In this document: positions 4,499 through 29,007 of the stretch, in pieces
How positions within the stretch are numbered: position 1 is the stretch's first letter
Layout: every line of letters begins with the position of its first letter
Assembly (NCBI GenBank): GCA_048938295.1
Contig: JBHLMI010000017.1
Location: forward strand, 1-32,000
Source: Promethearchaeota archaeon
Lineage (GTDB): Archaea; Asgardarchaeota; Hermodarchaeia; Hermodarchaeales; Hermodarchaeaceae
DNA: 32,000 nt
Direction: 5' to 3'
Program-made: the position numbers and the translations under genes
Notes under the pieces: generated by a model
The model's input: only the letters and a program-made list of their open reading frames with translations
Told to the model about the DNA's origin: nothing
Database searches by the model: none

Positions 4499-4936
4499 AT
4501 GCCAATATTTCGAACTGACCGATATGTTAAAGTCACTGTCACGGATTTCAAGCTCACAAAATCAAGCGAAGCGCTTTTGCAAGTCCTCCAGAAAGTCACT
4601 GCTCTTCGGAATGTACAGATGACTAAGGTCCAAAGAAATCGGGAAGAGCAGGGTAGAATAAGGGTCGAAGAGTGGTACGAGATAACTGGTTCTCTTAATG
4701 TTCCAGAAGGAGGGAAGTCTTTCTGGGTTATCTCCAAGCCAAGTACTGAAAAAGAACCTTATAATTTCTTCATGCGTGTTGATCGAAACATCGAAGCGAA
4801 TAACTATGAAGATGCACAGAAAAAGGCTACTACCTGGCTTAATCGAACAATCATTAAACCATTAGATGCAGCCTTTTCGATTGCAGCTAGTAGTGTTACC
4901 CCACCTGAAGATATTAGTCAATTAGCGAGTAGGTGA
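4499..4936 (+). CDS. Hypothetical protein upstream of tfrA
   Basis: 145 aa, AGGAG SD before the ATG, ends 6 nt before the tfrA start. Confidence 0.65.
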   Translation: MPIFRTDRYVKVTVTDFKLTKSSEALLQVLQKVTALRNVQMTKVQRNREEQGRIRVEEWYEITGSLNVPEGGKSFWVISKPSTEKEPYNFFMRVDRNIEANNYEDAQKKATTWLNRTIIKPLDAAFSIAASSVTPPEDISQLASR

Positions 4937-4942
4937 ATCCTG

Positions 4943-6646
4943 GTGACCTTTGAAGTTATTGATACAGATGTGTTAGTTGTTGGCGCTGGTGGAGCAGGTT
5001 GCCGCGCGGCAATCGCTGCTTCTGATTCTAACCAAGAAGTCACTATAATTACCAAAGATATTCTGGGAAAAGCCCACACCGTTATGGCCGAAGGTGGAAT
5101 CAACGCTGCTTTGGCAAATTTAGATCCTGATGACTTATGTGAAATTCATGCTCAAGACACATGTAATGCTGGGGCATATCTTAACAATCAGCAGCTCGTA
5201 GAAATCCTAGCAGAAGAAGCTCCTCAAAGGGTCTTTGATTTAGAAAATTTTGGCGCCATCTTCTCAAGAACCCCCGATGGTCTTATTATGCAACGCCCCT
5301 TTGGCCATCAAACTTATCGACGAACATGTTATGCTGGAGACCGAACAGGTCATGAGGTTCTAGCAACATTGACCGAAGAAATTCGGAGGCGGCAAATCAA
5401 TGTCGTTGATGAAGTCTTTGCAACGGCATTGCTTCGGAATAAGAATCGAGTCGCGGGCGTTTCTGTATTAGAGATTCGCACAGGAAAGTTCCAAGTGTAT
5501 CGGGCACCTGCTATTGTCTTGGCCACCGGTGGTGCTGGTCGGATTTATAATGTGACAACAAATGCCCAAGCGGATGTTGGCAGTGGATATGCAATTGCAT
5601 ACAACGCCAATGTAGAGCTCATCGATATGGAACAGTTTCAATTCCATCCAACAGGAGCTGCCATACCTCCTGCAGCACGGGGGCGTCTCGTTACAGAAGG
5701 CGTCCGTGGTGAAGGAGGGATCCTTCTAAATAAGGATGGGGAACGGTTCATGAAGCGCTACAACCCCCGACTTATGGAACTAGCTGGGCGTGATGAAGTC
5801 GCAAGGGCAATTGCAACGGAAATCCGAGAAGGTCGAGGAACAGAAAATGAGGCCGTATACTTAGACATTTCCTTTCTTCCTACAAAAATCATCGAAGAAC
5901 GTCTCCCCACAATGCTAGAAGATTTCCTCGACATTGGAATCGATATTCGTAATGAACGAATGGAAGTGACCCCAACGGCTCACCATGTAATGGGAGGATT
6001 AAAGATCGATTCATCCACAAGAACCAATCTCCATGGTCTGTTTGCTGCAGGTGAAGTTGCTGGTGGTGTACATGGCGGAAACAGATTAGGTGGAAATGCT
6101 CTTGCTGCTGGTCAAGTATTTGGAAAAATCGCAGGGGACTCTGCAGCTGCTTATGCTGCAAACAATCCACCTCCTGCTCTTGATAGAGATGCAATAGATG
6201 TAGAATTTTCACGTTTGACAGCTCCTCTTGAAAGAGAAGATGGAATTGGTGCGGCAGAGGAAACTAAACAGCTTCAACGTAACATGTGGGATAATGCGGG
6301 GTTATTCAGAAATGAAGAAGACCTAAATGCAGCACTCAATTTTATTACCCAGCAAAATAAGCGCGTCGATTCCAAACTTACTGTGCAGAATAAGTCTTCA
6401 CGGTATAACACAGAGTGGATCACTGCACTTGAATTGCAAGACATGATCCTCGTTGCAGAAATGATTGTACGTTCAGCATTGTTACGAAAAGAGTCCAGAG
6501 GTGCACACTATCGAACGGATTATCCTTCTCTCGACAACAAACTACAGTTCAATAATATTGTTATTTCAAAACAAAGGGAGAAAATGATTCTCAAACAAAT
6601 GCCTGTAGTAATTACAAAATGGACCCCACCATGGATAAAAAACTAA
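4943..6646 (+). CDS. tfrA: Fumarate reductase / succinate dehydrogenase flavoprotein, TfrA-like
   Basis: FAD motif GAGGAG, AHTVMAEGGINA, QRPFG.QTYRRTCY.GDRTGHE, QFHPTG, TEGVRGEG, HHVMGG, HGGNRLGGNAL, RKESRGAHYR. Confidence 0.9.
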   Translation: MTFEVIDTDVLVVGAGGAGCRAAIAASDSNQEVTIITKDILGKAHTVMAEGGINAALANLDPDDLCEIHAQDTCNAGAYLNNQQLVEILAEEAPQRVFDLENFGAIFSRTPDGLIMQRPFGHQTYRRTCYAGDRTGHEVLATLTEEIRRRQINVVDEVFATALLRNKNRVAGVSVLEIRTGKFQVYRAPAIVLATGGAGRIYNVTTNAQADVGSGYAIAYNANVELIDMEQFQFHPTGAAIPPAARGRLVTEGVRGEGGILLNKDGERFMKRYNPRLMELAGRDEVARAIATEIREGRGTENEAVYLDISFLPTKIIEERLPTMLEDFLDIGIDIRNERMEVTPTAHHVMGGLKIDSSTRTNLHGLFAAGEVAGGVHGGNRLGGNALAAGQVFGKIAGDSAAAYAANNPPPALDRDAIDVEFSRLTAPLEREDGIGAAEETKQLQRNMWDNAGLFRNEEDLNAALNFITQQNKRVDSKLTVQNKSSRYNTEWITALELQDMILVAEMIVRSALLRKESRGAHYRTDYPSLDNKLQFNNIVISKQREKMILKQMPVVITKWTPPWIKN

Positions 6647-6668
6647 CCTAACCTTGAGGTCAAAATCA

Positions 6669-8237
6669 ATGGGTAAAGAACAGATGGTTAATTTTAGAGT
6701 TCAACGCTATAATCCTGATATTCAGGATAAGCCAACATATACCACCTACCATGTTCCGTACACTGACAGGCAAGGCGTGCTTGATGCTTTACATTATATC
6801 TTCCGAGAATTGGATTCCTCGTTAGCATATCGTTGGAACTGCCGGACCGGTCAATGCGGTTCGTGTGCAATTACTATCAATGGCATACCAGGTCTAGCAT
6901 GTCGAACGGTCGTTGATCCTTCTCAAGATTACGTTTTAGAACCTCTACAAAACTTCCCAGTTATTCGTGACCTCGTTGTTGACCTTGGACCCGGGTTCAA
7001 ACGATTAGACAAACTCCGACCCTATTTAGAACGGACCTCAGCTCCAGACCGTCCCGAAAAGTTGACACGGGAAGAAATTTCATCTGCGATGGAACTGCGG
7101 GCATGTATCGAATGCTTTTCTTGTTATGCTGCCTGTCCAGCAGTAGCTTCAGCGAAGCAAGAATATCCTGGCCCCATTGCCATGCGAGAATTAGCCAGTT
7201 TTGAATTCGATCCACGTGACCAAGGTGATCGGGTTCAACTTGCTGTCAGCAGTGGTCTTTACGATTGCACAAGCTGCGGTATTTGCAAAGAAGTGTGCAT
7301 TCCCAAACACATAGATACCCGGCGAACAGCCGTTGAAGGGCTCCGTGCTCTCGCAGCAGAACGAGAGATGGGTCCCCTTGAAGGTCATCAAGGATTCATT
7401 AACCAAATAAAAGAAACAGGATATGCGGTGGATGTAAAAACAACACCACTGACCGATCAATTACCAGAAGTCATCGAGGTTTCAAATCCGGTGGACGAAG
7501 TGTTATTTTTCCCCGGATGTCTCATTAACTTGCGTATTCAGCATATTGGAATGAACATCGTCGAAGTGTTGAAACGTAATAACGTTAAGGTACATATTCC
7601 CAAGGATTTTGTGTGCTGTAGTAGTGTGGCATTTCGGACTGGCGCTCGTTCCATCGCCTACGATATGGTGATTCGAAATACAGAATATTTCCGGAAACTT
7701 GGGGTATCCAAAGTCGTATCGCTCTGTCCTGGTTGTATGTCAACTATCAAACAAGACTGGCCTGTTGTGCTACACGAGATGAATAAGCCACCATACGAAT
7801 TCGAACCTTTCGATATCACAGAATATCTAGTAAACCAACTCGGCCTAGAGAAAATTAACCAAAAAGACCTCAAACCACTCCCAATTCGGGTGGTTTATCA
7901 TGATCCCTGTCATCTCAATCGGCATCAAGGCATATCTGAGGAACCCAGAAAACTAATCCGAATGATTCCTGATATTGAATTCATTGACATTGAAGACAGT
8001 GATCGATGCTGCGGAGCTGGCGGTGGCGTCCGAGCTGGGCGTCGAGATTTATCTGAAGACATCGCTGGAATAAAATTTAAGCTACTAAGCGAACCTAAAC
8101 CTGATGTTATTGCCACTTCCTGCTCTTTTTGCTACATCCAGCTAATGGACGCAGCAAAGATAGCCAATTCCGATATCAAAATCATGAATGTCACAGATCT
8201 TCTCGCAGCCTCATATCGTGGTGACACCCTCAAATAG
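6669..8237 (+). CDS. tfrB: Fe-S subunit with SdhB/FrdB domain fused to two HdrD-type CCG domains (thiol:fumarate reductase subunit B architecture)
   Basis: [2Fe-2S] CRTGQCGSC..C; CIECFSCYAACP and CTSCGICKEVC; then FPGC..CCSS..SLCPGC and YHDPCHL..CCGAGGG..TSCSFC. GAGGT SD favours ATG 6669 (track start is TTG 6654). Confidence 0.88.
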   Translation: MGKEQMVNFRVQRYNPDIQDKPTYTTYHVPYTDRQGVLDALHYIFRELDSSLAYRWNCRTGQCGSCAITINGIPGLACRTVVDPSQDYVLEPLQNFPVIRDLVVDLGPGFKRLDKLRPYLERTSAPDRPEKLTREEISSAMELRACIECFSCYAACPAVASAKQEYPGPIAMRELASFEFDPRDQGDRVQLAVSSGLYDCTSCGICKEVCIPKHIDTRRTAVEGLRALAAEREMGPLEGHQGFINQIKETGYAVDVKTTPLTDQLPEVIEVSNPVDEVLFFPGCLINLRIQHIGMNIVEVLKRNNVKVHIPKDFVCCSSVAFRTGARSIAYDMVIRNTEYFRKLGVSKVVSLCPGCMSTIKQDWPVVLHEMNKPPYEFEPFDITEYLVNQLGLEKINQKDLKPLPIRVVYHDPCHLNRHQGISEEPRKLIRMIPDIEFIDIEDSDRCCGAGGGVRAGRRDLSEDIAGIKFKLLSEPKPDVIATSCSFCYIQLMDAAKIANSDIKIMNVTDLLAASYRGDTLK

Positions 8238-8243
8238 GGTAAT

Positions 8244-8843
8244 TCAGATTCCTGCTAATCTGTAAATCCGTTCTCGATTCCTTTCGACATTTGTGCTTAT
8301 CTGCTCGAAGAGGTTCTCTCCTGTAGAATCAATGGAAACGATTAGAGGTCCGAACTTTTCTACCTCCATAATCCAAAGTGCTTCAGGCATGCCAAGGTCG
8401 AGCCATTCCGCGCTTACTATTCGACGAATCGCCTTTGCTGCTAATACAGCAGCACCACCAGTAAAGGCCCCATAAACTGCACCGAACTGCTTCATTGCCA
8501 AAGCCGTTTTAGGTCCCATTCCTCCCTTTCCAATGACAACTCGAACACCAAAGGCTTCAATGAATTTATCTTCAAACATTTCCATCCGCGTGCTTGTTGT
8601 CGGACCCGCTGCTACGACTTCCCATCCCGACGCCGTTTGTCTGACAATGGGTCCACAATGAAAGACACATAAGCCAGAAGGATCAATCGGCAACGCCCTA
8701 TTTTCTTTAGCCCATTCAAGGGCCCGCTCATGCGCTTCATCACGAGCAGTGAACATCGTCCCGGTGATATATACAATATCATTGACGCGAAGCTTTCGAA
8801 TAGCCTCTTCTGAGATTGGAGTAGTTAAGTCATAGGTTGACAT
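8244..8843 (-). CDS. Class I Fe-S fumarate hydratase (fumarase/tartrate dehydratase family), beta subunit
   Basis: GTMFTARDEAH, FHCGP, GPTTSTRM, VIGKGGM, GGAAVL, LGMPEALW, FGPLIVSIDSTG. Confidence 0.92.
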   Translation of the reverse strand: MSTYDLTTPISEEAIRKLRVNDIVYITGTMFTARDEAHERALEWAKENRALPIDPSGLCVFHCGPIVRQTASGWEVVAAGPTTSTRMEMFEDKFIEAFGVRVVIGKGGMGPKTALAMKQFGAVYGAFTGGAAVLAAKAIRRIVSAEWLDLGMPEALWIMEVEKFGPLIVSIDSTGENLFEQISTNVERNRERIYRLAGI

Positions 8844-8848
8844 GTAGA

Positions 8849-9724
8849 TTAAACCTCATGTGATGTAAATGTCACTTTTCCTTCCTTTGAAATAACGGCA
8901 GTGGCACGTCTTGCTGCCCAGCATTGAACGGCAAGGCCAACAGGAAATGAAGCAGGATGTCTCATCGCAACATCGATATGTACATCCAAAACGGTCGTGT
9001 CTCCTCCTAAGCCCATGGGGCCAATACCCGTCTCATTAATTGCAGATAAAAGCTCTTCCTCCAACTTGGCAATTTTCGCATTCGGGTGATGTTGTCCCAC
9101 GGGTCTGAGCAGTTGCTCCTTTGCGATTTTCATGCAGATATCCGCGCCGCCTCCTATCCCAATTCCAAGAATTGTGGGTGGACAAGGCTTAGCCCCTGCA
9201 TCGATTATTGAATCAATTATGAATTTCTTCATTCCTTTCAATCCTTGGCCAGGAGTTAGCATTCCTAGCTTGCATACATTCTCTGATCCTCCCCCTTTTG
9301 GCAGAGCAGTAATTTCTAGATCTGTTCCCTCAATTACTCTCCAATTAATCCAAGGAATATGAAGACCCGTATTATCTCCTGGGTTCTTATTTAAAATCGG
9401 ATTTACAGTATTGGGTCGAAGCGGGATTTCCTGCGTTGCCCTCTTAACTGCTTTGTCGATGATGGACGGAAGTTGGTGAAGCAAGGGGAATTTCGAACCG
9501 ACCGTTAAGTAGAATATCTGGATTCCTGTATCTTGACACATCGGAATTGCGTTTTTCCTTGCAAGACTAATATTATCCAAAATGGCTTTTAGCTGGCTCT
9601 TAGCAGTGCTATTGGTCTCCCTTGCTAATGCGCGTTCAAGCCCCTCAGATACATCAGATGGTAAATCGGTTACGGCCAGCCGAAGAAGGGTTACGAAGGT
9701 GTCTTCTAAGATAGAACTCTGCAT
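8849..9724 (-). CDS. Class I Fe-S fumarate hydratase (fumarase/tartrate dehydratase family), alpha subunit
   Basis: PMCQDTG, LRPNTV, KGGGSEN, AKPCPP, GIGIGG, GIGPMGLGG, HPASFPV, VQCWAAR (three cluster cysteines present). Confidence 0.92.
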   Translation of the reverse strand: MQSSILEDTFVTLLRLAVTDLPSDVSEGLERALARETNSTAKSQLKAILDNISLARKNAIPMCQDTGIQIFYLTVGSKFPLLHQLPSIIDKAVKRATQEIPLRPNTVNPILNKNPGDNTGLHIPWINWRVIEGTDLEITALPKGGGSENVCKLGMLTPGQGLKGMKKFIIDSIIDAGAKPCPPTILGIGIGGGADICMKIAKEQLLRPVGQHHPNAKIAKLEEELLSAINETGIGPMGLGGDTTVLDVHIDVAMRHPASFPVGLAVQCWAARRATAVISKEGKVTFTSHEV

Positions 9725-9764: not shown

Positions 9765-10355
9765 CTAAGTTCCTATTCTTTTGGGTTGTGCTAGATTTGA
9801 TCCTAAGAGAATTCGTCGCAACACTCCTTGTAATATTTCAAGAGTGAAAGAGCCTTGAGTGGCTACTGTTTCAAAAATCTGAGACGCGCCGTTAAGTCCA
9901 AGCATATTCATGAATTCAAATCGGCTAATCACAGGCCAAATATCTCGTTTATTCAAAGCAAAAATTACAGGGATTTCATCTCCCAGTCGATTTTCAAAGA
10001 AACCCTTAAGCTCGTCCCAACATCGTTTGTTTTCCTTTATTAAATTTGGATTAGAATCCGCTACAAATACGATTCCATCAGTTCCTGCAAGAACGGTCGA
10101 CCGCGTTTCTGCATAATAGTCTTGACCAGTTGCTGACCAAATATGGATTTGAATGACCCATTCACCGTGCGAAAGCTCAATGGGACCATAATCAAAAAAC
10201 AAAGTTCTTCCAGAGGTTGTCTCAATGGATTCAAGACGAGACAAGATATTCAGACGAGAAAAAAGAGCACGAATACTAGCTGTTTTTCCGCTCATGGCGG
10301 GACCATAGTAAACGATTTTTGTTTGTATGACTTTTTGGCTCCAATCAATTAGCAC
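9765..10355 (-). CDS. MglA-family small GTPase
   Basis: KIVYYGPAMSGKT (G1), GRTLFFD (G2 with the MglA-type Arg), SATGQ (G3), NKRD (G4). Confidence 0.88.
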   Translation of the reverse strand: MLIDWSQKVIQTKIVYYGPAMSGKTASIRALFSRLNILSRLESIETTSGRTLFFDYGPIELSHGEWVIQIHIWSATGQDYYAETRSTVLAGTDGIVFVADSNPNLIKENKRCWDELKGFFENRLGDEIPVIFALNKRDIWPVISRFEFMNMLGLNGASQIFETVATQGSFTLEILQGVLRRILLGSNLAQPKRIGT

Positions 10356-10370
10356 CTTTTTTCCTCCAGG

Positions 10371-11261
10371 TTAGATTGTCCAGAATCCCTCTAATCGGTC
10401 CCCAAAGGTTTGTCCTGTCCCGTCTTGTACAGAGGCTTGGAAATCTTCGCCCCATTCAGCCTTAATGAATTCCATTAAGCGGTTTATAGTAGCTCCCTTG
10501 TAATCCACAGCCTGCTGCAACATCTTGTCAGATATTACTGACCTTACACCCACTCCTTGTAATAATCGAAGTCGTAACAGAATAATCATGACTCTCCAGG
10601 CTGCCTCTACAAACGCCTGGATGTGTTCACGATAAAGGCTTTGTCTGATACGCTCTTCCTCATGATTGAGATCGACTAAGCTCTTTTCAAGCCGCTCACT
10701 AACTTTACCCTGTGCCGCCCTTTTTAAGATTCTAGTTATTCTTTCAATCTTGGTACGTGTTTCTGAAGTAACTTTTTCTAGCAATTTATTTTCAAAATTC
10801 GTTTCAGAAAACGTGTTTGAATCTCCGTTCGATTCGATTTTGAGTTTACCTTCATTAAACAGAAGAGTCAATGGAAGCGTAGAACTCTGGGATAACGACT
10901 GCATGATTTCTTCTAGATGTATCTGATCGGTTGCGATAACCCATCCTCTGAAATCTGTAATCTGCTTTGAGACAAGTTGTGCTGCAGATGAGGGGGCACG
11001 ATAAATCATTCGCTCTCCGTTATAGTCGCTTTTTTCATGTTGAACCATCTGCTCATGTTCTGAATAGGATACAAAATCTGATCCGAAAACCATCTCCCGA
11101 CGATGTGGCACAAGCTTAATTAACGACTCTGCAATCGAATCCACCGCTTCTAGCGAATCACTATAGATGATTACTGGATATCGATCTAATATTGTACGTA
11201 ATACAATAGCTAGCTGTTTTCTTCCAAGAGTAAATAACCCACTATCCAGAAGTGTGCTCAT
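10371..11261 (-). CDS. Hypothetical protein with DENN-core-like domain
   Basis: Start reassigned to ATG 11261, which overlaps the upstream stop as ATGA (11258-11261); 296 aa. LGRKQLAIVLRTILDRYPVIIYSDSLEAVDSIAESLIKLVP fits the cDENN helix-strand-helix-Pro signature. The CDS is confident; the DENN call is inference. Confidence 0.6.
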   Translation of the reverse strand: MSTLLDSGLFTLGRKQLAIVLRTILDRYPVIIYSDSLEAVDSIAESLIKLVPHRREMVFGSDFVSYSEHEQMVQHEKSDYNGERMIYRAPSSAAQLVSKQITDFRGWVIATDQIHLEEIMQSLSQSSTLPLTLLFNEGKLKIESNGDSNTFSETNFENKLLEKVTSETRTKIERITRILKRAAQGKVSERLEKSLVDLNHEEERIRQSLYREHIQAFVEAAWRVMIILLRLRLLQGVGVRSVISDKMLQQAVDYKGATINRLMEFIKAEWGEDFQASVQDGTGQTFGDRLEGFWTI

Positions 11262-12184
11262 CGTACGATTGCCTCCAAAAAACCATCCACATCTAGAGTC
11301 GGTTTCTGTGCTGGGGGAGCTTGTTGTAGCACCAATTCGATCTCGGCTATGAAATTTGGGATAATCAATCGCAGCAGGCCAAGACGAGTCGAATCCTTCT
11401 GTATCAGTGTACTGAAAAGGCCACCTGCCAACCTGTAGATGAAGTGTTGCCTTGAACCACAATCGCATAAAACCTGAAGAATCCTTGTTCGTTTGATTAA
11501 TTGTGCGACTTTTCGAGACGTATCAAATAAAGTATAGGTCAGCGTGGAATTGCGAATACGCTTTCCTTCATTAAATCGTTGTGTCGGAATTAGGTAGCCT
11601 CCTTCAAGACAGACCTCACCTGTTTGAGCAGAAGGCAAGGCCTGAAGAAAATCTGTGACTATCGCCGTTATCTGTTGGGCAGCGTTTTCGGTAATTGTCA
11701 TATTCAAAGAACCTGTTGACCAATTCTGTTGTGCCCCCTCTCGAACACTAAACGCATTATAGATTTGAGTACGTTGTGCCTTCTCAAAGGATCGCAAAGG
11801 TGGGATAAACCGCTCATTCCACAGAGCTTCGTCTAAATGGGAAATGCCTCGCTCTAATTGCAATAAAAGGGCTCCCAAATTACTTTGGCTTTGGGTTGTT
11901 ACCGTAACGAAATAGTTTGTAGCTCGGGGAAGTGTGGCTAATAAGAACTTACTGCGTTCTCCTTCAATAAGCACGTATGATAAATCGTCATGGAGTCTTT
12001 GTGCCACCGATAAAATTGCGGCAGCTGAAGATGATAAACCAAAAATCTCATTCTCTGACAACCAAACCCCAGTACTAGAAATGGGATAGCCATCTCTTTG
12101 AACTAGTACTGTGTTCTCTACACCAGGAACCGATTTGATATTCTGCAAATGCAAATTAAACTGGTCTAGCATCCTATGAGACAT
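11258..12184 (-). CDS. Tandem Roadblock/LC7 (MglB/LAMTOR-like) domain protein
   Basis: Domain 1: LQNIKSVPGVENTVLVQRDGYPISS..SAAAILSVAQRL..YVLIEGERSKFLL..NLGALLLQL. A second, more diverged copy starts near ITAIVTDF and ends RLGLLRLII. Confidence 0.82.
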   Translation of the reverse strand: MSHRMLDQFNLHLQNIKSVPGVENTVLVQRDGYPISSTGVWLSENEIFGLSSSAAAILSVAQRLHDDLSYVLIEGERSKFLLATLPRATNYFVTVTTQSQSNLGALLLQLERGISHLDEALWNERFIPPLRSFEKAQRTQIYNAFSVREGAQQNWSTGSLNMTITENAAQQITAIVTDFLQALPSAQTGEVCLEGGYLIPTQRFNEGKRIRNSTLTYTLFDTSRKVAQLIKRTRILQVLCDCGSRQHFIYRLAGGLFSTLIQKDSTRLGLLRLIIPNFIAEIELVLQQAPPAQKPTLDVDGFLEAIVR

Positions 12185-22195: not shown

Positions 22196-22302
22196 TGGTG
22201 CCGCGTCGGGGATTTTCTCCTAACGGAATTACCGAAAAGGATTCGAACCCCGGTCCTAAGGGCGAGAGCCTCAGATGATTGACCTGACTACACTAACGCG
22301 GC
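22196..22302 (-). tRNA. tRNA-Glu(CTC) with a 29-nt intron in the T loop (59/60); CCA encoded
   Basis: Acceptor GCCGCGT/ACGCGGC, anticodon arm TGAGG-CTCTCGC-CCTTA, T stem CGGGG/CCCCG interrupted by the insert 22213-22241. Confidence 0.92.
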
Positions 22303-27267: not shown

Positions 27268-29007
27268 CTATTCCGCAATTTCCTCTCGCAAAGATAACAG
27301 GATTCTATCCATTCGTCCTACGGCTTTATCCCGGCGTTTCTCCAAGTCTTTCTGGAGCTTCTGGTAGACGGAAGCTGTAATCCGCTTTTGCCTGTAACGC
27401 TGTTCAAGGGCATGAAGTGCTTCAATTGCACTGACTCTTTCTGCTTCCATCAGCTCAAGTTGACGAACACTGGATTCATACTTTCCACCAGCGTCAATTA
27501 ACGATTGGCTTCTGCTTGCTAATTCCTGGTCAAGTGCACGAAGTTTCTTTTCGAAGCTCTTTTTCTCCTTTCGGTATCTCGGTTTAGAAATCTTTCCTTG
27601 AAGCATGGTCTTTTCTAGCCTTTCTGACTGCAGTAAGAGGGCAATTTTTTCACCATATAACGCACAAAATTCGCTAAGAATTGCTGGATCAACTTCTGCA
27701 GCTACTACGATCTCTTCCTCCTCCTCACGGAAAAAGGGTACATGTCTAACTATAACATAACCGAGACAGAAAATCCCCACAAGAAGGAAGAGGACTACCG
27801 GTCGAATAAAAGCTTGTGAAAGCGGATACACATAGTTAAGTCTAACTTCACTCTGGGTGATGGAAGTGACATTATTAGCTCTAATGGAAACCAGGTATTG
27901 CCCTGTCGGAGAAATCGATGTCATAGCCCCAAGAGGAACACCTTGAAGCCAGCTTCCGATTGGAAGCAAGAATTCTGTTGTCTGTTGCTCAATTAGGAAG
28001 GGATATTCAAGATACAGGTCTAAAAATAACAATTGACCAGTTTGTAACACTAATTGGTTATGATCGAGAGGAATCCGGTATTCAAAATAGAAAGTGTAGG
28101 TATCTCCCTTTTCTAAGTGATATTGAAAGTTAACATTGATTATCCCTGGATCAAAAATACTGGCGGGAGTTTCGATTTGGCTAGATAAGTTTGTTACACT
28201 ATCATAAACTCTAAGAAATTGGCTACCTGGAGGCAACAGAAGTTGGATTGACTGCCAGACTCTATCAACATTTGAGAAACGGGGGTTATCACTATTCACT
28301 TGAAGCGTGTGTTCTTCATGAGCAAAGAGATATCCCCACGGATCGATCGAAAACTGTCGATGGAGTTCTGAATACGTAATTAAAGGAAAGAACTCAGCAG
28401 AATCGAACTCAAGATTAGATATTCCCCACTCAAATGAAAAAGGATGAAGATCACTCCCGGACCATAGAGTGCGAGTAGGCGCTGTAAAAACTTCGACATA
28501 AGTAAATCTTGTCTCATAGCTCTGGATGAAGTAAGGGCTAGTGGGTTTTACAGGAACTGCAATTTTAGCCTTCTCTCCTGTCTGGGAAGTCAGACCAGTT
28601 ATTGCCATCTGAGCTTTTATTGTGGTATTCTGGCTAGGCATAACCGGGGTGTGTAAAAAGATCTGCCATCCTGTACAGTTGGGGCCAATAATTGGAACAC
28701 GTTGGAAAAGCAGTGAGGTGCCATTCAAAGTTTCAGCTCGAAACTCCTTGACACTATTAATTTCAGAGAGGGGGTATGCTGTCAAGAATGAAAAAGCTGG
28801 TTCTGGTCCAGGATTATAGATCGTAATAGTGTCAGTCACGAGTGTCATTCCATAGGTCTCATAATAGACATCTCGGTCTATGTCTGTAATTATTAACTGC
28901 GAACCACTTCCACCTACAGGCAGCCCAAGAGCTAGAATCATAGGCAAACAGATGAGAATAAGTAGAAACGCGACTCTAGTCTTCAAAGACACACGCACCG
29001 ATGCCAA
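27268..29007 (-). CDS. Ribophorin I (OST1/RPN1) homologue
   Basis: Signal peptide; two aminopeptidase-N-like lumenal domains (IDRDV..TDTITIYNPG; ELHRQFSIDPWGYLFAHEEH; LPPGSQ..VYDSVTNL; YTFYFEYRIPL; EFLLPIG); one TM helix; C-terminal cytosolic helical bundle. Confidence 0.85.
   Translation of the reverse strand: MASVRVSLKTRVAFLLILICLPMILALGLPVGGSGSQLIITDIDRDVYYETYGMTLVTDTITIYNPGPEPAFSFLTAYPLSEINSVKEFRAETLNGTSLLFQRVPIIGPNCTGWQIFLHTPVMPSQNTTIKAQMAITGLTSQTGEKAKIAVPVKPTSPYFIQSYETRFTYVEVFTAPTRTLWSGSDLHPFSFEWGISNLEFDSAEFFPLITYSELHRQFSIDPWGYLFAHEEHTLQVNSDNPRFSNVDRVWQSIQLLLPPGSQFLRVYDSVTNLSSQIETPASIFDPGIINVNFQYHLEKGDTYTFYFEYRIPLDHNQLVLQTGQLLFLDLYLEYPFLIEQQTTEFLLPIGSWLQGVPLGAMTSISPTGQYLVSIRANNVTSITQSEVRLNYVYPLSQAFIRPVVLFLLVGIFCLGYVIVRHVPFFREEEEEIVVAAEVDPAILSEFCALYGEKIALLLQSERLEKTMLQGKISKPRYRKEKKSFEKKLRALDQELASRSQSLIDAGGKYESSVRQLELMEAERVSAIEALHALEQRYRQKRITASVYQKLQKDLEKRRDKAVGRMDRILLSLREEIAE

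Follow-up and report, generated by a model that had tools for sequence, protein, structure and literature searches.

The window analysed here is a stretch of 32,000 nucleotides (positions 1 to 32,000 of contig JBHLMI010000017.1, assembly GCA_048938295.1) from a Promethearchaeota archaeon of the family Hermodarchaeaceae, and it carries tfrA and tfrB, the two genes of a TfrAB-type thiol:fumarate reductase, together with a split fumarase. The reductase genes are preceded by a small gene, orf145, which ends 6 bases ahead of tfrA, and the fumarase genes are convergent with tfrB across a gap of 6 bases (Table 1). An earlier note on this DNA had read four genes at positions 4943-9724 as a methanogen-type thiol:fumarate reductase facing a fumarase in an apparent non-methanogen, and the open reading frame listing and the profile searches recovered all four. 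What the analysis adds is that the enzyme belongs to a non-methanogen clade of its own with a conserved fumAB-tfrAB unit, as against the scattered genes of methanogens. The analysed genome comprises 2.52 Mb in 66 contigs and is 91.6% complete; profile counts were made over 15 genomes of the genus and, Asgard-wide, over 301 sampled Asgard genomes.

Table 1. Genes of the tfr locus in the window and related gene clusters on other contigs of the same genome
Feature	Position	Strand	Description
orf145	4499..4936	+	145 amino acids, no cysteines; candidate third tfr operon gene in the subclade
tfrA, flavoprotein subunit	4943-6646	+	567 amino acids, GTG start; FAD_binding_2 and Succ_DH_flav_C
tfrB, iron-sulfur subunit	open reading frame 6654-8237, TTG at 6654; likely ATG 6669	+	SdhB-like half fused to HdrB/HdrD-like half
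fumarase beta, class I (Fe-S) fumarate hydratase	8244-8843	-	PF05683 Fumerase_C, 2e-47
fumarase alpha, class I (Fe-S) fumarate hydratase	8849-9724	-	PF05681 Fumerase, 5e-96
PAPS-reductase-like gene, cysteate synthase and fused ComDE sulfopyruvate decarboxylase	contig 38, L011:7377-10450	-	profile matches
hdrC, hdrB, then 2-oxoacid (2-oxoglutarate-like):ferredoxin oxidoreductase alpha, beta, gamma	contig 51, L095:5097-9397	+	profile matches
HdrA2-MvhD fusion with HdrC- and HdrB-like genes	contig 23		profile matches
HdrD-like gene beside NuoN-type antiporter-like complex-I/Fpo-like subunits	contig 22, L097:3025-5929		471 amino acids, two CCG motifs and a ferredoxin domain (HdrD-like gene)
HdrD/GlpC-like gene with GlcD-like flavoprotein	contig 43		profile matches

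The iron-sulfur subunit gives the clearest assignment. TfrB scores 501.5 bits on the NCBIfam model NF004898, well past its equivalog cut-off of 385, and the match covers model positions 2-487 of 488 (residues 10-520). The runner-up models are dhsB, with 220 bits on the N-terminal half only, LdhH (157), GlpC (134), HdrB (68) and GlcF (60). A grouping with LldE/GlcF-type proteins or with membrane Sdh, which the earlier note had raised as the contrary outcome, was not seen, the TfrB model being far ahead of GlcF, GlpC and dhsB. The Pfam domains are Fer2_3, the 4Fe-4S dicluster domain Fer4_8 and two CCG domains, that is, an SdhB domain fused to two CCG domains, just as had been described. Each of its 22 cysteines belongs to one of five motifs: one CX4CX2CX11C, a pair of CX2CX2CX3C and a pair of CCG motifs spaced X31/X35 and X32/X36. 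The second CX2CX2CX3C motif carries the extra cysteine which is typical of Tfr and type E enzymes. Similarly, searches of the PDB lead from the N-terminal half to FrdB and from the C-terminal half to HdrB, and no solved Tfr structure was found in them. The first CCG motif reads VCCSS, and its 'CCS' had been pointed out in the earlier note; it is trivial variation, as 13 homologues conserve the cysteines but vary at the third position (S, T, G or A).

For the flavoprotein subunit the best family is TfrA (NF004900), which leads by 120 bits with 691.7 bits against a cut-off of 718, and the protein also passes the general SdhA/FrdA subfamily TIGR01812 (571.2 versus 567.3 bits). It has His45 within GKAHT, the covalent site of flavin adenine dinucleotide (FAD) in SdhA/FrdA, and the motifs FHPTG, RDEVA, HHVMGG and NRLGGN are present and align with solved SdhA/FrdA chains. 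No other SdhA-like gene is encoded in the genome. As judged from the translations, all catalytic and cluster-binding motifs of TfrAB are intact, and the TfrAB architecture proposed earlier is borne out by the two family scores.

The absence of an SdhC/SdhD anchor, also claimed before, was confirmed in two ways. A Kyte-Doolittle scan in 19-residue windows found no membrane-helix stretch in TfrA, TfrB or orf145 (maximum 1.3), and Sdh_cyt was found in none of the 15 genus genomes. There is likewise no anchor gene beside tfrAB, whose neighbours are the fumarase genes, a GTPase gene and genes of unknown function. TfrAB is thus predicted to be a soluble, anchorless enzyme. Membership in types A-D of the succinate:quinone or quinol:fumarate reductases was rejected, with no SdhC/SdhD or FrdC/FrdD anchor either at the locus or in the genus genomes.

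The two convergent genes encode a class I fumarate hydratase. The alpha subunit scores 340.4 bits on NF004885 fumarate hydratase (cut-off 276); the best NCBIfam match of the beta subunit is fumarate hydratase NF004708 with 241 bits, under the cut-off of 269, followed by TtdB with 228. With adjacent alpha (Fumerase) and beta (Fumerase_C) genes, the pair is a two-subunit class I fumarate hydratase and not a tartrate dehydratase. As to the start of tfrB, the ATG at 6669 is probably the true one, because it gives 522 amino acids and the TfrB homologues have that length.

The relationships of TfrB were studied with 80 loci from species-representative genomes, taking up to 7 kb on each side of tfrB for gene order. 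In a quick maximum-likelihood tree, unrooted and without an outgroup, methanogen and non-methanogen clades are split with a support of 100 in the Shimodaira-Hasegawa-like approximate likelihood-ratio test (SH-aLRT). The methanogen clade holds Methanobacteria, one Methanococci sequence and one row labelled Methanomicrobiales. The other clade holds Thor-, Hermod-, Heimdall- and Sifarchaeia, Bathyarchaeia and Nitrososphaeria. TfrB of the window lies on the side of the sister clade of methanogen TfrB and is not nested inside it, to the extent that an unrooted tree allows. Its closest loci come from Hermodarchaeota metagenome-assembled genomes (MAGs), including that of Candidatus Hermodarchaeum yapensis. 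The subclade around it also takes in one Bathyarchaeia sequence (L020) and one Nitrososphaeria sequence (L022) with support 100, which suggests either that the genes passed laterally between Asgard and TACK archaea or that sequences were mis-binned. The label 'methanogen-type' therefore stands for the architecture of the enzyme, and does not stand for its clade or its gene organization. TfrB is widespread in the phylum, being over the cut-off in 100 of 301 Asgard genomes, among them nearly every genome of one large family and, within the genus, 13 of 15. NCBI and JGI label homologues from Hod-, Thor-, Atabey- and Bathyarchaeia and from Nitrososphaeria as 'fumarate reductase (CoM/CoB) subunit TfrB'.

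Gene order follows the same division. In all 27 methanogen loci tfrB stands without tfrA or fumarase genes in the sampled flanks. Non-methanogen loci, in contrast, have tfrA directly 5' of tfrB and, in most cases, fumA-fumB directly upstream on the same strand. Among Thor-, Hermod- and Bathyarchaeia and Nitrososphaeria, about 40 loci show this fumAB-tfrAB linkage, usually as a co-directional row fumA-fumB-tfrA-tfrB. In the Hermod subclade the fumarase genes are shifted to a convergent downstream position, and the Nitrososphaeria locus L022 reads fumA-fumB-orf145-tfrA-tfrB with all genes co-directional. A linkage so conserved, and so different from the methanogen arrangement, indicates that the fumarase belongs functionally with tfrAB and is not a chance neighbour. 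The pairing with the facing fumarase, which the earlier note had read as the source of fumarate, is supported in this way.

The subclade has a further feature of its own in orf145. The gene stands directly upstream of tfrA in all 11 subclade loci, and in two further contigs (L099, L100) its end runs 4 and 11 bases past the start of tfrA. The subclade in which it occurs consists of Hermodarchaeota and of single Bathyarchaeia and Nitrososphaeria MAGs. A hidden Markov model search found it as a single copy in the genome, and the same model found no copy in the tfr loci of Thor type, which have TfrAB without orf145. A divergent form in the Thor loci was considered and rejected, as the gap between fumB and tfrA holds no conserved open reading frame. 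The protein has no Pfam or NCBIfam match, and the homologue clusters (n=74) are all named 'hypothetical'. In its AlphaFold2 model, which is a confident one (predicted local distance difference test 90.4, predicted template modelling score 0.83), long helices pack against a beta-sheet. Foldseek returned nothing from the PDB at E <= 0.001, an Atlas search returned unnamed Thorarchaeota proteins only, and the best VIA-align matches were Bet v1/SRPBCC-like helix-grip chains with Z of at most 8.8, within the background range of the tool. No fold family or function was assigned, the fold matches being not clearly above background. The probable role of orf145 is that of a third subunit or assembly factor for TfrAB in this subclade.

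From the gene content, motifs, family scores, linkage and genomic context we infer in which direction the reaction runs, its thiol chemistry and an Hdr-dependent recycling, as follows. Fumarase would turn malate into fumarate, which TfrA would reduce to succinate at its FAD. Electrons would enter at the two CCG-motif clusters of the HdrB-like half of TfrB, where a thiol pair would be oxidized to a disulfide, and would then pass the three Fe-S clusters of the SdhB-like half to the FAD. The disulfide would be reduced again by Hdr complexes encoded elsewhere in the genome. The thiol-driven reduction of fumarate is the favoured direction, as fumarate/succinate lies at about +30 mV versus about -140 mV for the heterodisulfide CoM-S-S-CoB of coenzymes M (CoM) and B (CoB).

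Around this step a reductive branch could run from pyruvate to malate by malic enzyme, over fumarate and succinate to succinyl-CoA by SucCD, and on to 2-oxoglutarate by a Kor-like oxidoreductase. Malic enzyme and both the alpha and beta subunits of succinyl-CoA synthetase (SucCD) are encoded in the genome, as is a three-subunit 2-oxoacid:ferredoxin oxidoreductase (alpha/beta/gamma) for which 2-oxoglutarate synthase is the second-best family. Citrate synthase was found in 1 of the 15 genus genomes and not in the analysed one, and because it is missing the reductive branch would be the route of the genus to 2-oxoglutarate. In Methanobacteriales and Methanococcales, Tfr serves the anabolic branch to 2-oxoglutarate. 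The earlier note had seen in malate, fumarate and succinate a compact electron sink. This is one possible reading, but biosynthesis of 2-oxoglutarate is at least as strongly indicated, given the missing citrate synthase and the presence of malic enzyme, SucCD and the Kor-like enzyme. The main role is thus probably the biosynthetic branch, with a possible secondary role as a redox sink. Taken together, we hold with moderate confidence that the locus encodes a cytoplasmic, anchorless TfrAB-type fumarate reductase which works with the adjacent fumarase, is fed by a thiol and serves mainly the reductive branch to 2-oxoglutarate.

Several points weigh against this reading. TfrA stays 26 bits below the TfrA equivalog cut-off, and for the Kor-like enzyme 2-oxoglutarate cannot be singled out as the substrate. 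No malate dehydrogenase of LDH/MDH type or Ldh_2 type was over threshold in the genome, so that the supply of malate would depend on malic enzyme alone, and these counts come from a genome that is 91.6% complete. The electron donor may differ from that of methanogens, because the TfrB clade is separate from theirs. CCG-domain proteins also serve quinol-linked enzymes such as type E Sdh and Mfr, and the motif alone does not imply thiol chemistry.

The earlier note had left the identity of the thiol as an open question, and this is agreed. The CoM-pathway genes give a mixed picture. The host is a non-methanogen as far as tested, as it had appeared to be: McrA was found neither in the analysed genome nor in the 15 genomes of the genus. 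An unlikely explanation, though the likeliest of the alternatives, is that the enzyme is a true CoM-SH + CoB-SH:fumarate oxidoreductase as in Methanothermobacter. CoM and CoB would then be made without Mcr, and fumarate would replace methyl-CoM as the oxidant in a Tfr-Hdr cycle of CoM-S-S-CoB. TfrB passes the equivalog cut-off of the CoM/CoB TfrB, and on contig 38 a PAPS-reductase-like gene is clustered with cysteate synthase (516 bits, cut-off 325) and with a fused ComDE, each half of which exceeds its own cut-off; this amounts to the Methanosarcina-type route up to sulfoacetaldehyde. With the analysed genome counted, 13 of the 15 genus genomes have ComE. The route stops short, however, at the thiol, since the ComF/DUF39 family that makes the thiol from sulfoacetaldehyde occurs in 0 of 15 genus genomes; ComA and Ldh_2/ComC were not found in the genome, and cysteate synthase occurs in just 7 of the 15. 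The search for mcr, CoM and hdr genes proposed earlier has therefore come out on both sides, with cysteate synthase, ComDE and Hdr genes present and mcr, ComA, ComC and ComF not found. For CoB, the biosynthesis genes are inseparable from leucine and lysine paralogues.

The distribution of these genes also speaks against CoM. Across the 301 Asgard genomes, cysteate synthase was found in 14 and ComE over the cut-off in 51, and TfrB and ComE do not co-vary. For example, in one Asgard family all 76 genomes have TfrB matches and only 1 has ComE, and a family with ComE in 39 of 68 shows only weak, HdrD-like matches to the TfrB model, save one genome just over the cut-off. Because TfrAB and CoM-type genes do not go together, the data speak against CoM as a donor for the non-methanogen TfrAB clade in general; in this genus it may still serve. 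The neighbours of the contig 38 cluster, namely a GT4 glycosyltransferase, a PIG-L deacetylase, an ATP-grasp protein and a surface-carbohydrate protein, offer another explanation, and on their account a sulfonated glycan (or lipid) may fit the cluster as well as CoM does. A single paper was found that mentions sulfopyruvate decarboxylase together with Asgard.

Genes for the return of the disulfide are encoded on several contigs. HdrB (396.5 versus 345 bits) and HdrC (208.9 versus 160 bits) pass their CoB-CoM equivalog cut-offs, which favours the CoM/CoB explanation, as does the HdrD-like gene that adjoins complex-I/Fpo-like genes on contig 22. The latter pairing resembles the Fpo-like/HdrD pairing of Methanomassiliicoccales. 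The row of hdrCB and Kor-like genes on contig 51 recalls the bacterial kor-tfr-flx-hdr clusters. Taken by their profiles, the Hdr-type genes make a thiol/disulfide loop plausible.

A quite improbable alternative is that TfrAB is a peripheral type E succinate:quinone oxidoreductase, or one linked to a methanophenazine-like carrier, in which the fused CCG domain acts as SdhE, orf145 is a lipid- or quinone-binding docking protein and the whole is a respiratory complex II. SdhE, a CCG protein, is indeed the quinone-side subunit in type E Sdh and Mfr, and the HdrB-like proteins of the genome match the MFR SdhE model with 125-176 bits. The genome also encodes complex-I/Fpo-like membrane subunits, so some membrane carrier is likely, and the orf145 model resembles the helix-grip SRPBCC fold, the fold class of CoxG (Z 6.5-8.8). 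These Z values are, however, inside the background range quoted for the tool, and the Thor-type loci do without orf145. Moreover, the TfrB model far outscores all Sdh/Frd and SdhE-type models, and there is no hydrophobic or obviously amphipathic anchor stretch. A search that was not exhaustive found no SdhF-like partner or quinone pathway: MqnA/D for menaquinone synthesis were not found, the classical Men pathway lying outside that search. Membership in type E Sdh or Mfr was rejected on the grounds that the CCG module is fused to SdhB and is not a separate SdhE, and that MqnA/D were not found.

An extended version of the thiol-fed reductase, which we regard as very doubtful, would make TfrAB with orf145 the oxidizing half of a soluble thiol/disulfide loop akin to a cytoplasmic quinone pool. 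The thiol would be a sulfonate from the cysteate synthase-ComDE route and a putative thiol-forming enzyme, and two systems would re-reduce the disulfide, namely bifurcating complexes of the HdrA2BC/Mvh type and an Fpo-like/HdrD complex that pumps ions. If true, a relative of eukaryotes would respire fumarate with an assembly of methanogen parts, and orf145 would be a new third subunit.

Least probable is the opposite direction, in which TfrAB acts as a succinate dehydrogenase that regenerates fumarate for glycyl-radical alkyl- or benzylsuccinate synthases in hydrocarbon activation: fumarate-addition enzymes are proposed for Hermodarchaeota by Zhang et al., 2021 (PMC8163825), and PFL-like glycyl-radical enzymes occur in 7 of the 15 genus genomes, but none occurs in the analysed genome, for which it was rejected as the main role for that reason, and with TfrB over the cut-off in 13 of 15 the two traits are uncoupled. 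The TfrAB-fumAB unit is equally conserved in lineages without a hydrocarbon pathway. By general redox knowledge, a disulfide acceptor at about -140 mV would also make the oxidation of succinate strongly uphill.

Other genes of the window are typical of Asgard archaea, such as those for ribosomal protein S25e, a Roadblock/LC7 protein, Arf/Roc-like GTPases and a ribophorin-like protein. An Arf/Roc-like GTPase (196 amino acids), an open reading frame of 365 amino acids without known function and a Roadblock/LC7-domain protein stand in a row at 9765-12184 on the minus strand, next to the fumarase genes, and may form a regulatory module typical of Asgard archaea. The GTPase and the 365-residue open reading frame stay beside the fumarase genes in seven fetched Hermodarchaeota loci. 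Farther away, at 27268-29007 on the minus strand, a protein of 579 amino acids has a weak C-terminal match to Ribophorin I, a subunit of the eukaryotic oligosaccharyltransferase and a known 'eukaryotic signature' protein of Asgard archaea. The sole tRNA of the window is a tRNA-Glu (22225-22297), unrelated to the tfr locus, and an Rfam scan of the window gave no match.

The substrates of Hdr- and Tfr-type enzymes in non-methanogenic archaea and bacteria are a real question, one already raised for this phylum in 2021, and the energy metabolism of Asgard archaea matters for models of how eukaryotes arose. Besides the conserved fumAB-tfrAB unit of a separate clade, the present analysis contributes to this question that in Asgard genomes the occurrence of CoM-type biosynthesis genes is not tied to that of TfrAB, and that one subclade has in orf145 a tightly coupled candidate partner.

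The reference enzyme is TfrAB of Methanothermobacter marburgensis/thermautotrophicus, EC 1.3.4.1 (Heim et al., 1998, as cited in PMC8163825). Like it and its orthologues in Methanobacteria and Methanococci, the enzyme described here has two subunits, no anchor and the same five TfrB cysteine motifs, of which one has the additional cysteine by which a 4Fe-4S motif replaces the usual 3Fe-4S site; NF004898 is passed, and identity to methanogen TfrB is 36-42%. It differs from methanogen TfrAB in its separate clade, in the adjacent and fumarase-linked tfrA-tfrB and in the coupled orf145, and its host differs from theirs in having no Mcr and a CoM pathway that is incomplete by known enzymes.

In Hermodarchaeota, TfrAB has already been published and annotated, and it is an ordinary member of a known family. 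Zhang et al. (2021; PMC8163825) describe a cytoplasmic fumarate reductase in Hermodarchaeota, citing the Methanobacterium work on Tfr, and state that a CoM-S-S-CoB cycle without Mcr is still to be determined. Likewise, Tfr is invoked for the reoxidation of CoM and CoB in Sifarchaeia by Sun et al. (2021; PMC9723677), and Adam et al. (2022; PMC9635834), on Mnemosynellales, note such reductases as proposed for Asgard lineages. The homologues of Hermodarchaeota, Sifarchaeia and Mnemosynellales have the same gene pair and come from the same phylum or close relatives. The contrast in fumAB-tfrAB linkage with methanogens, orf145 and the distribution of ComDE and cysteate synthase are not described in the available portions of the three papers.

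Outside archaea, tubeworm symbionts have an operon korABCD-tfrAB-flxABCD-hdrABC (PMC6315080). The two systems share an anchorless fumarate reductase, a context of malate, fumarate, succinate and 2-oxoglutarate, and Hdr-type proteins in the same genome, and they differ in that tfrAB stands apart from hdr here, with hdrCB beside Kor-like genes on another contig. Finally, the SdhABEF of Sulfolobus/Acidianus (type E) and the MfrABE of Campylobacter resemble the present enzyme in an SdhB with a third 4Fe-4S-type motif and in a module with two CCG motifs; in type E Sdh and Mfr this module is a separate, quinone-linked subunit, whereas here it is fused to SdhB.

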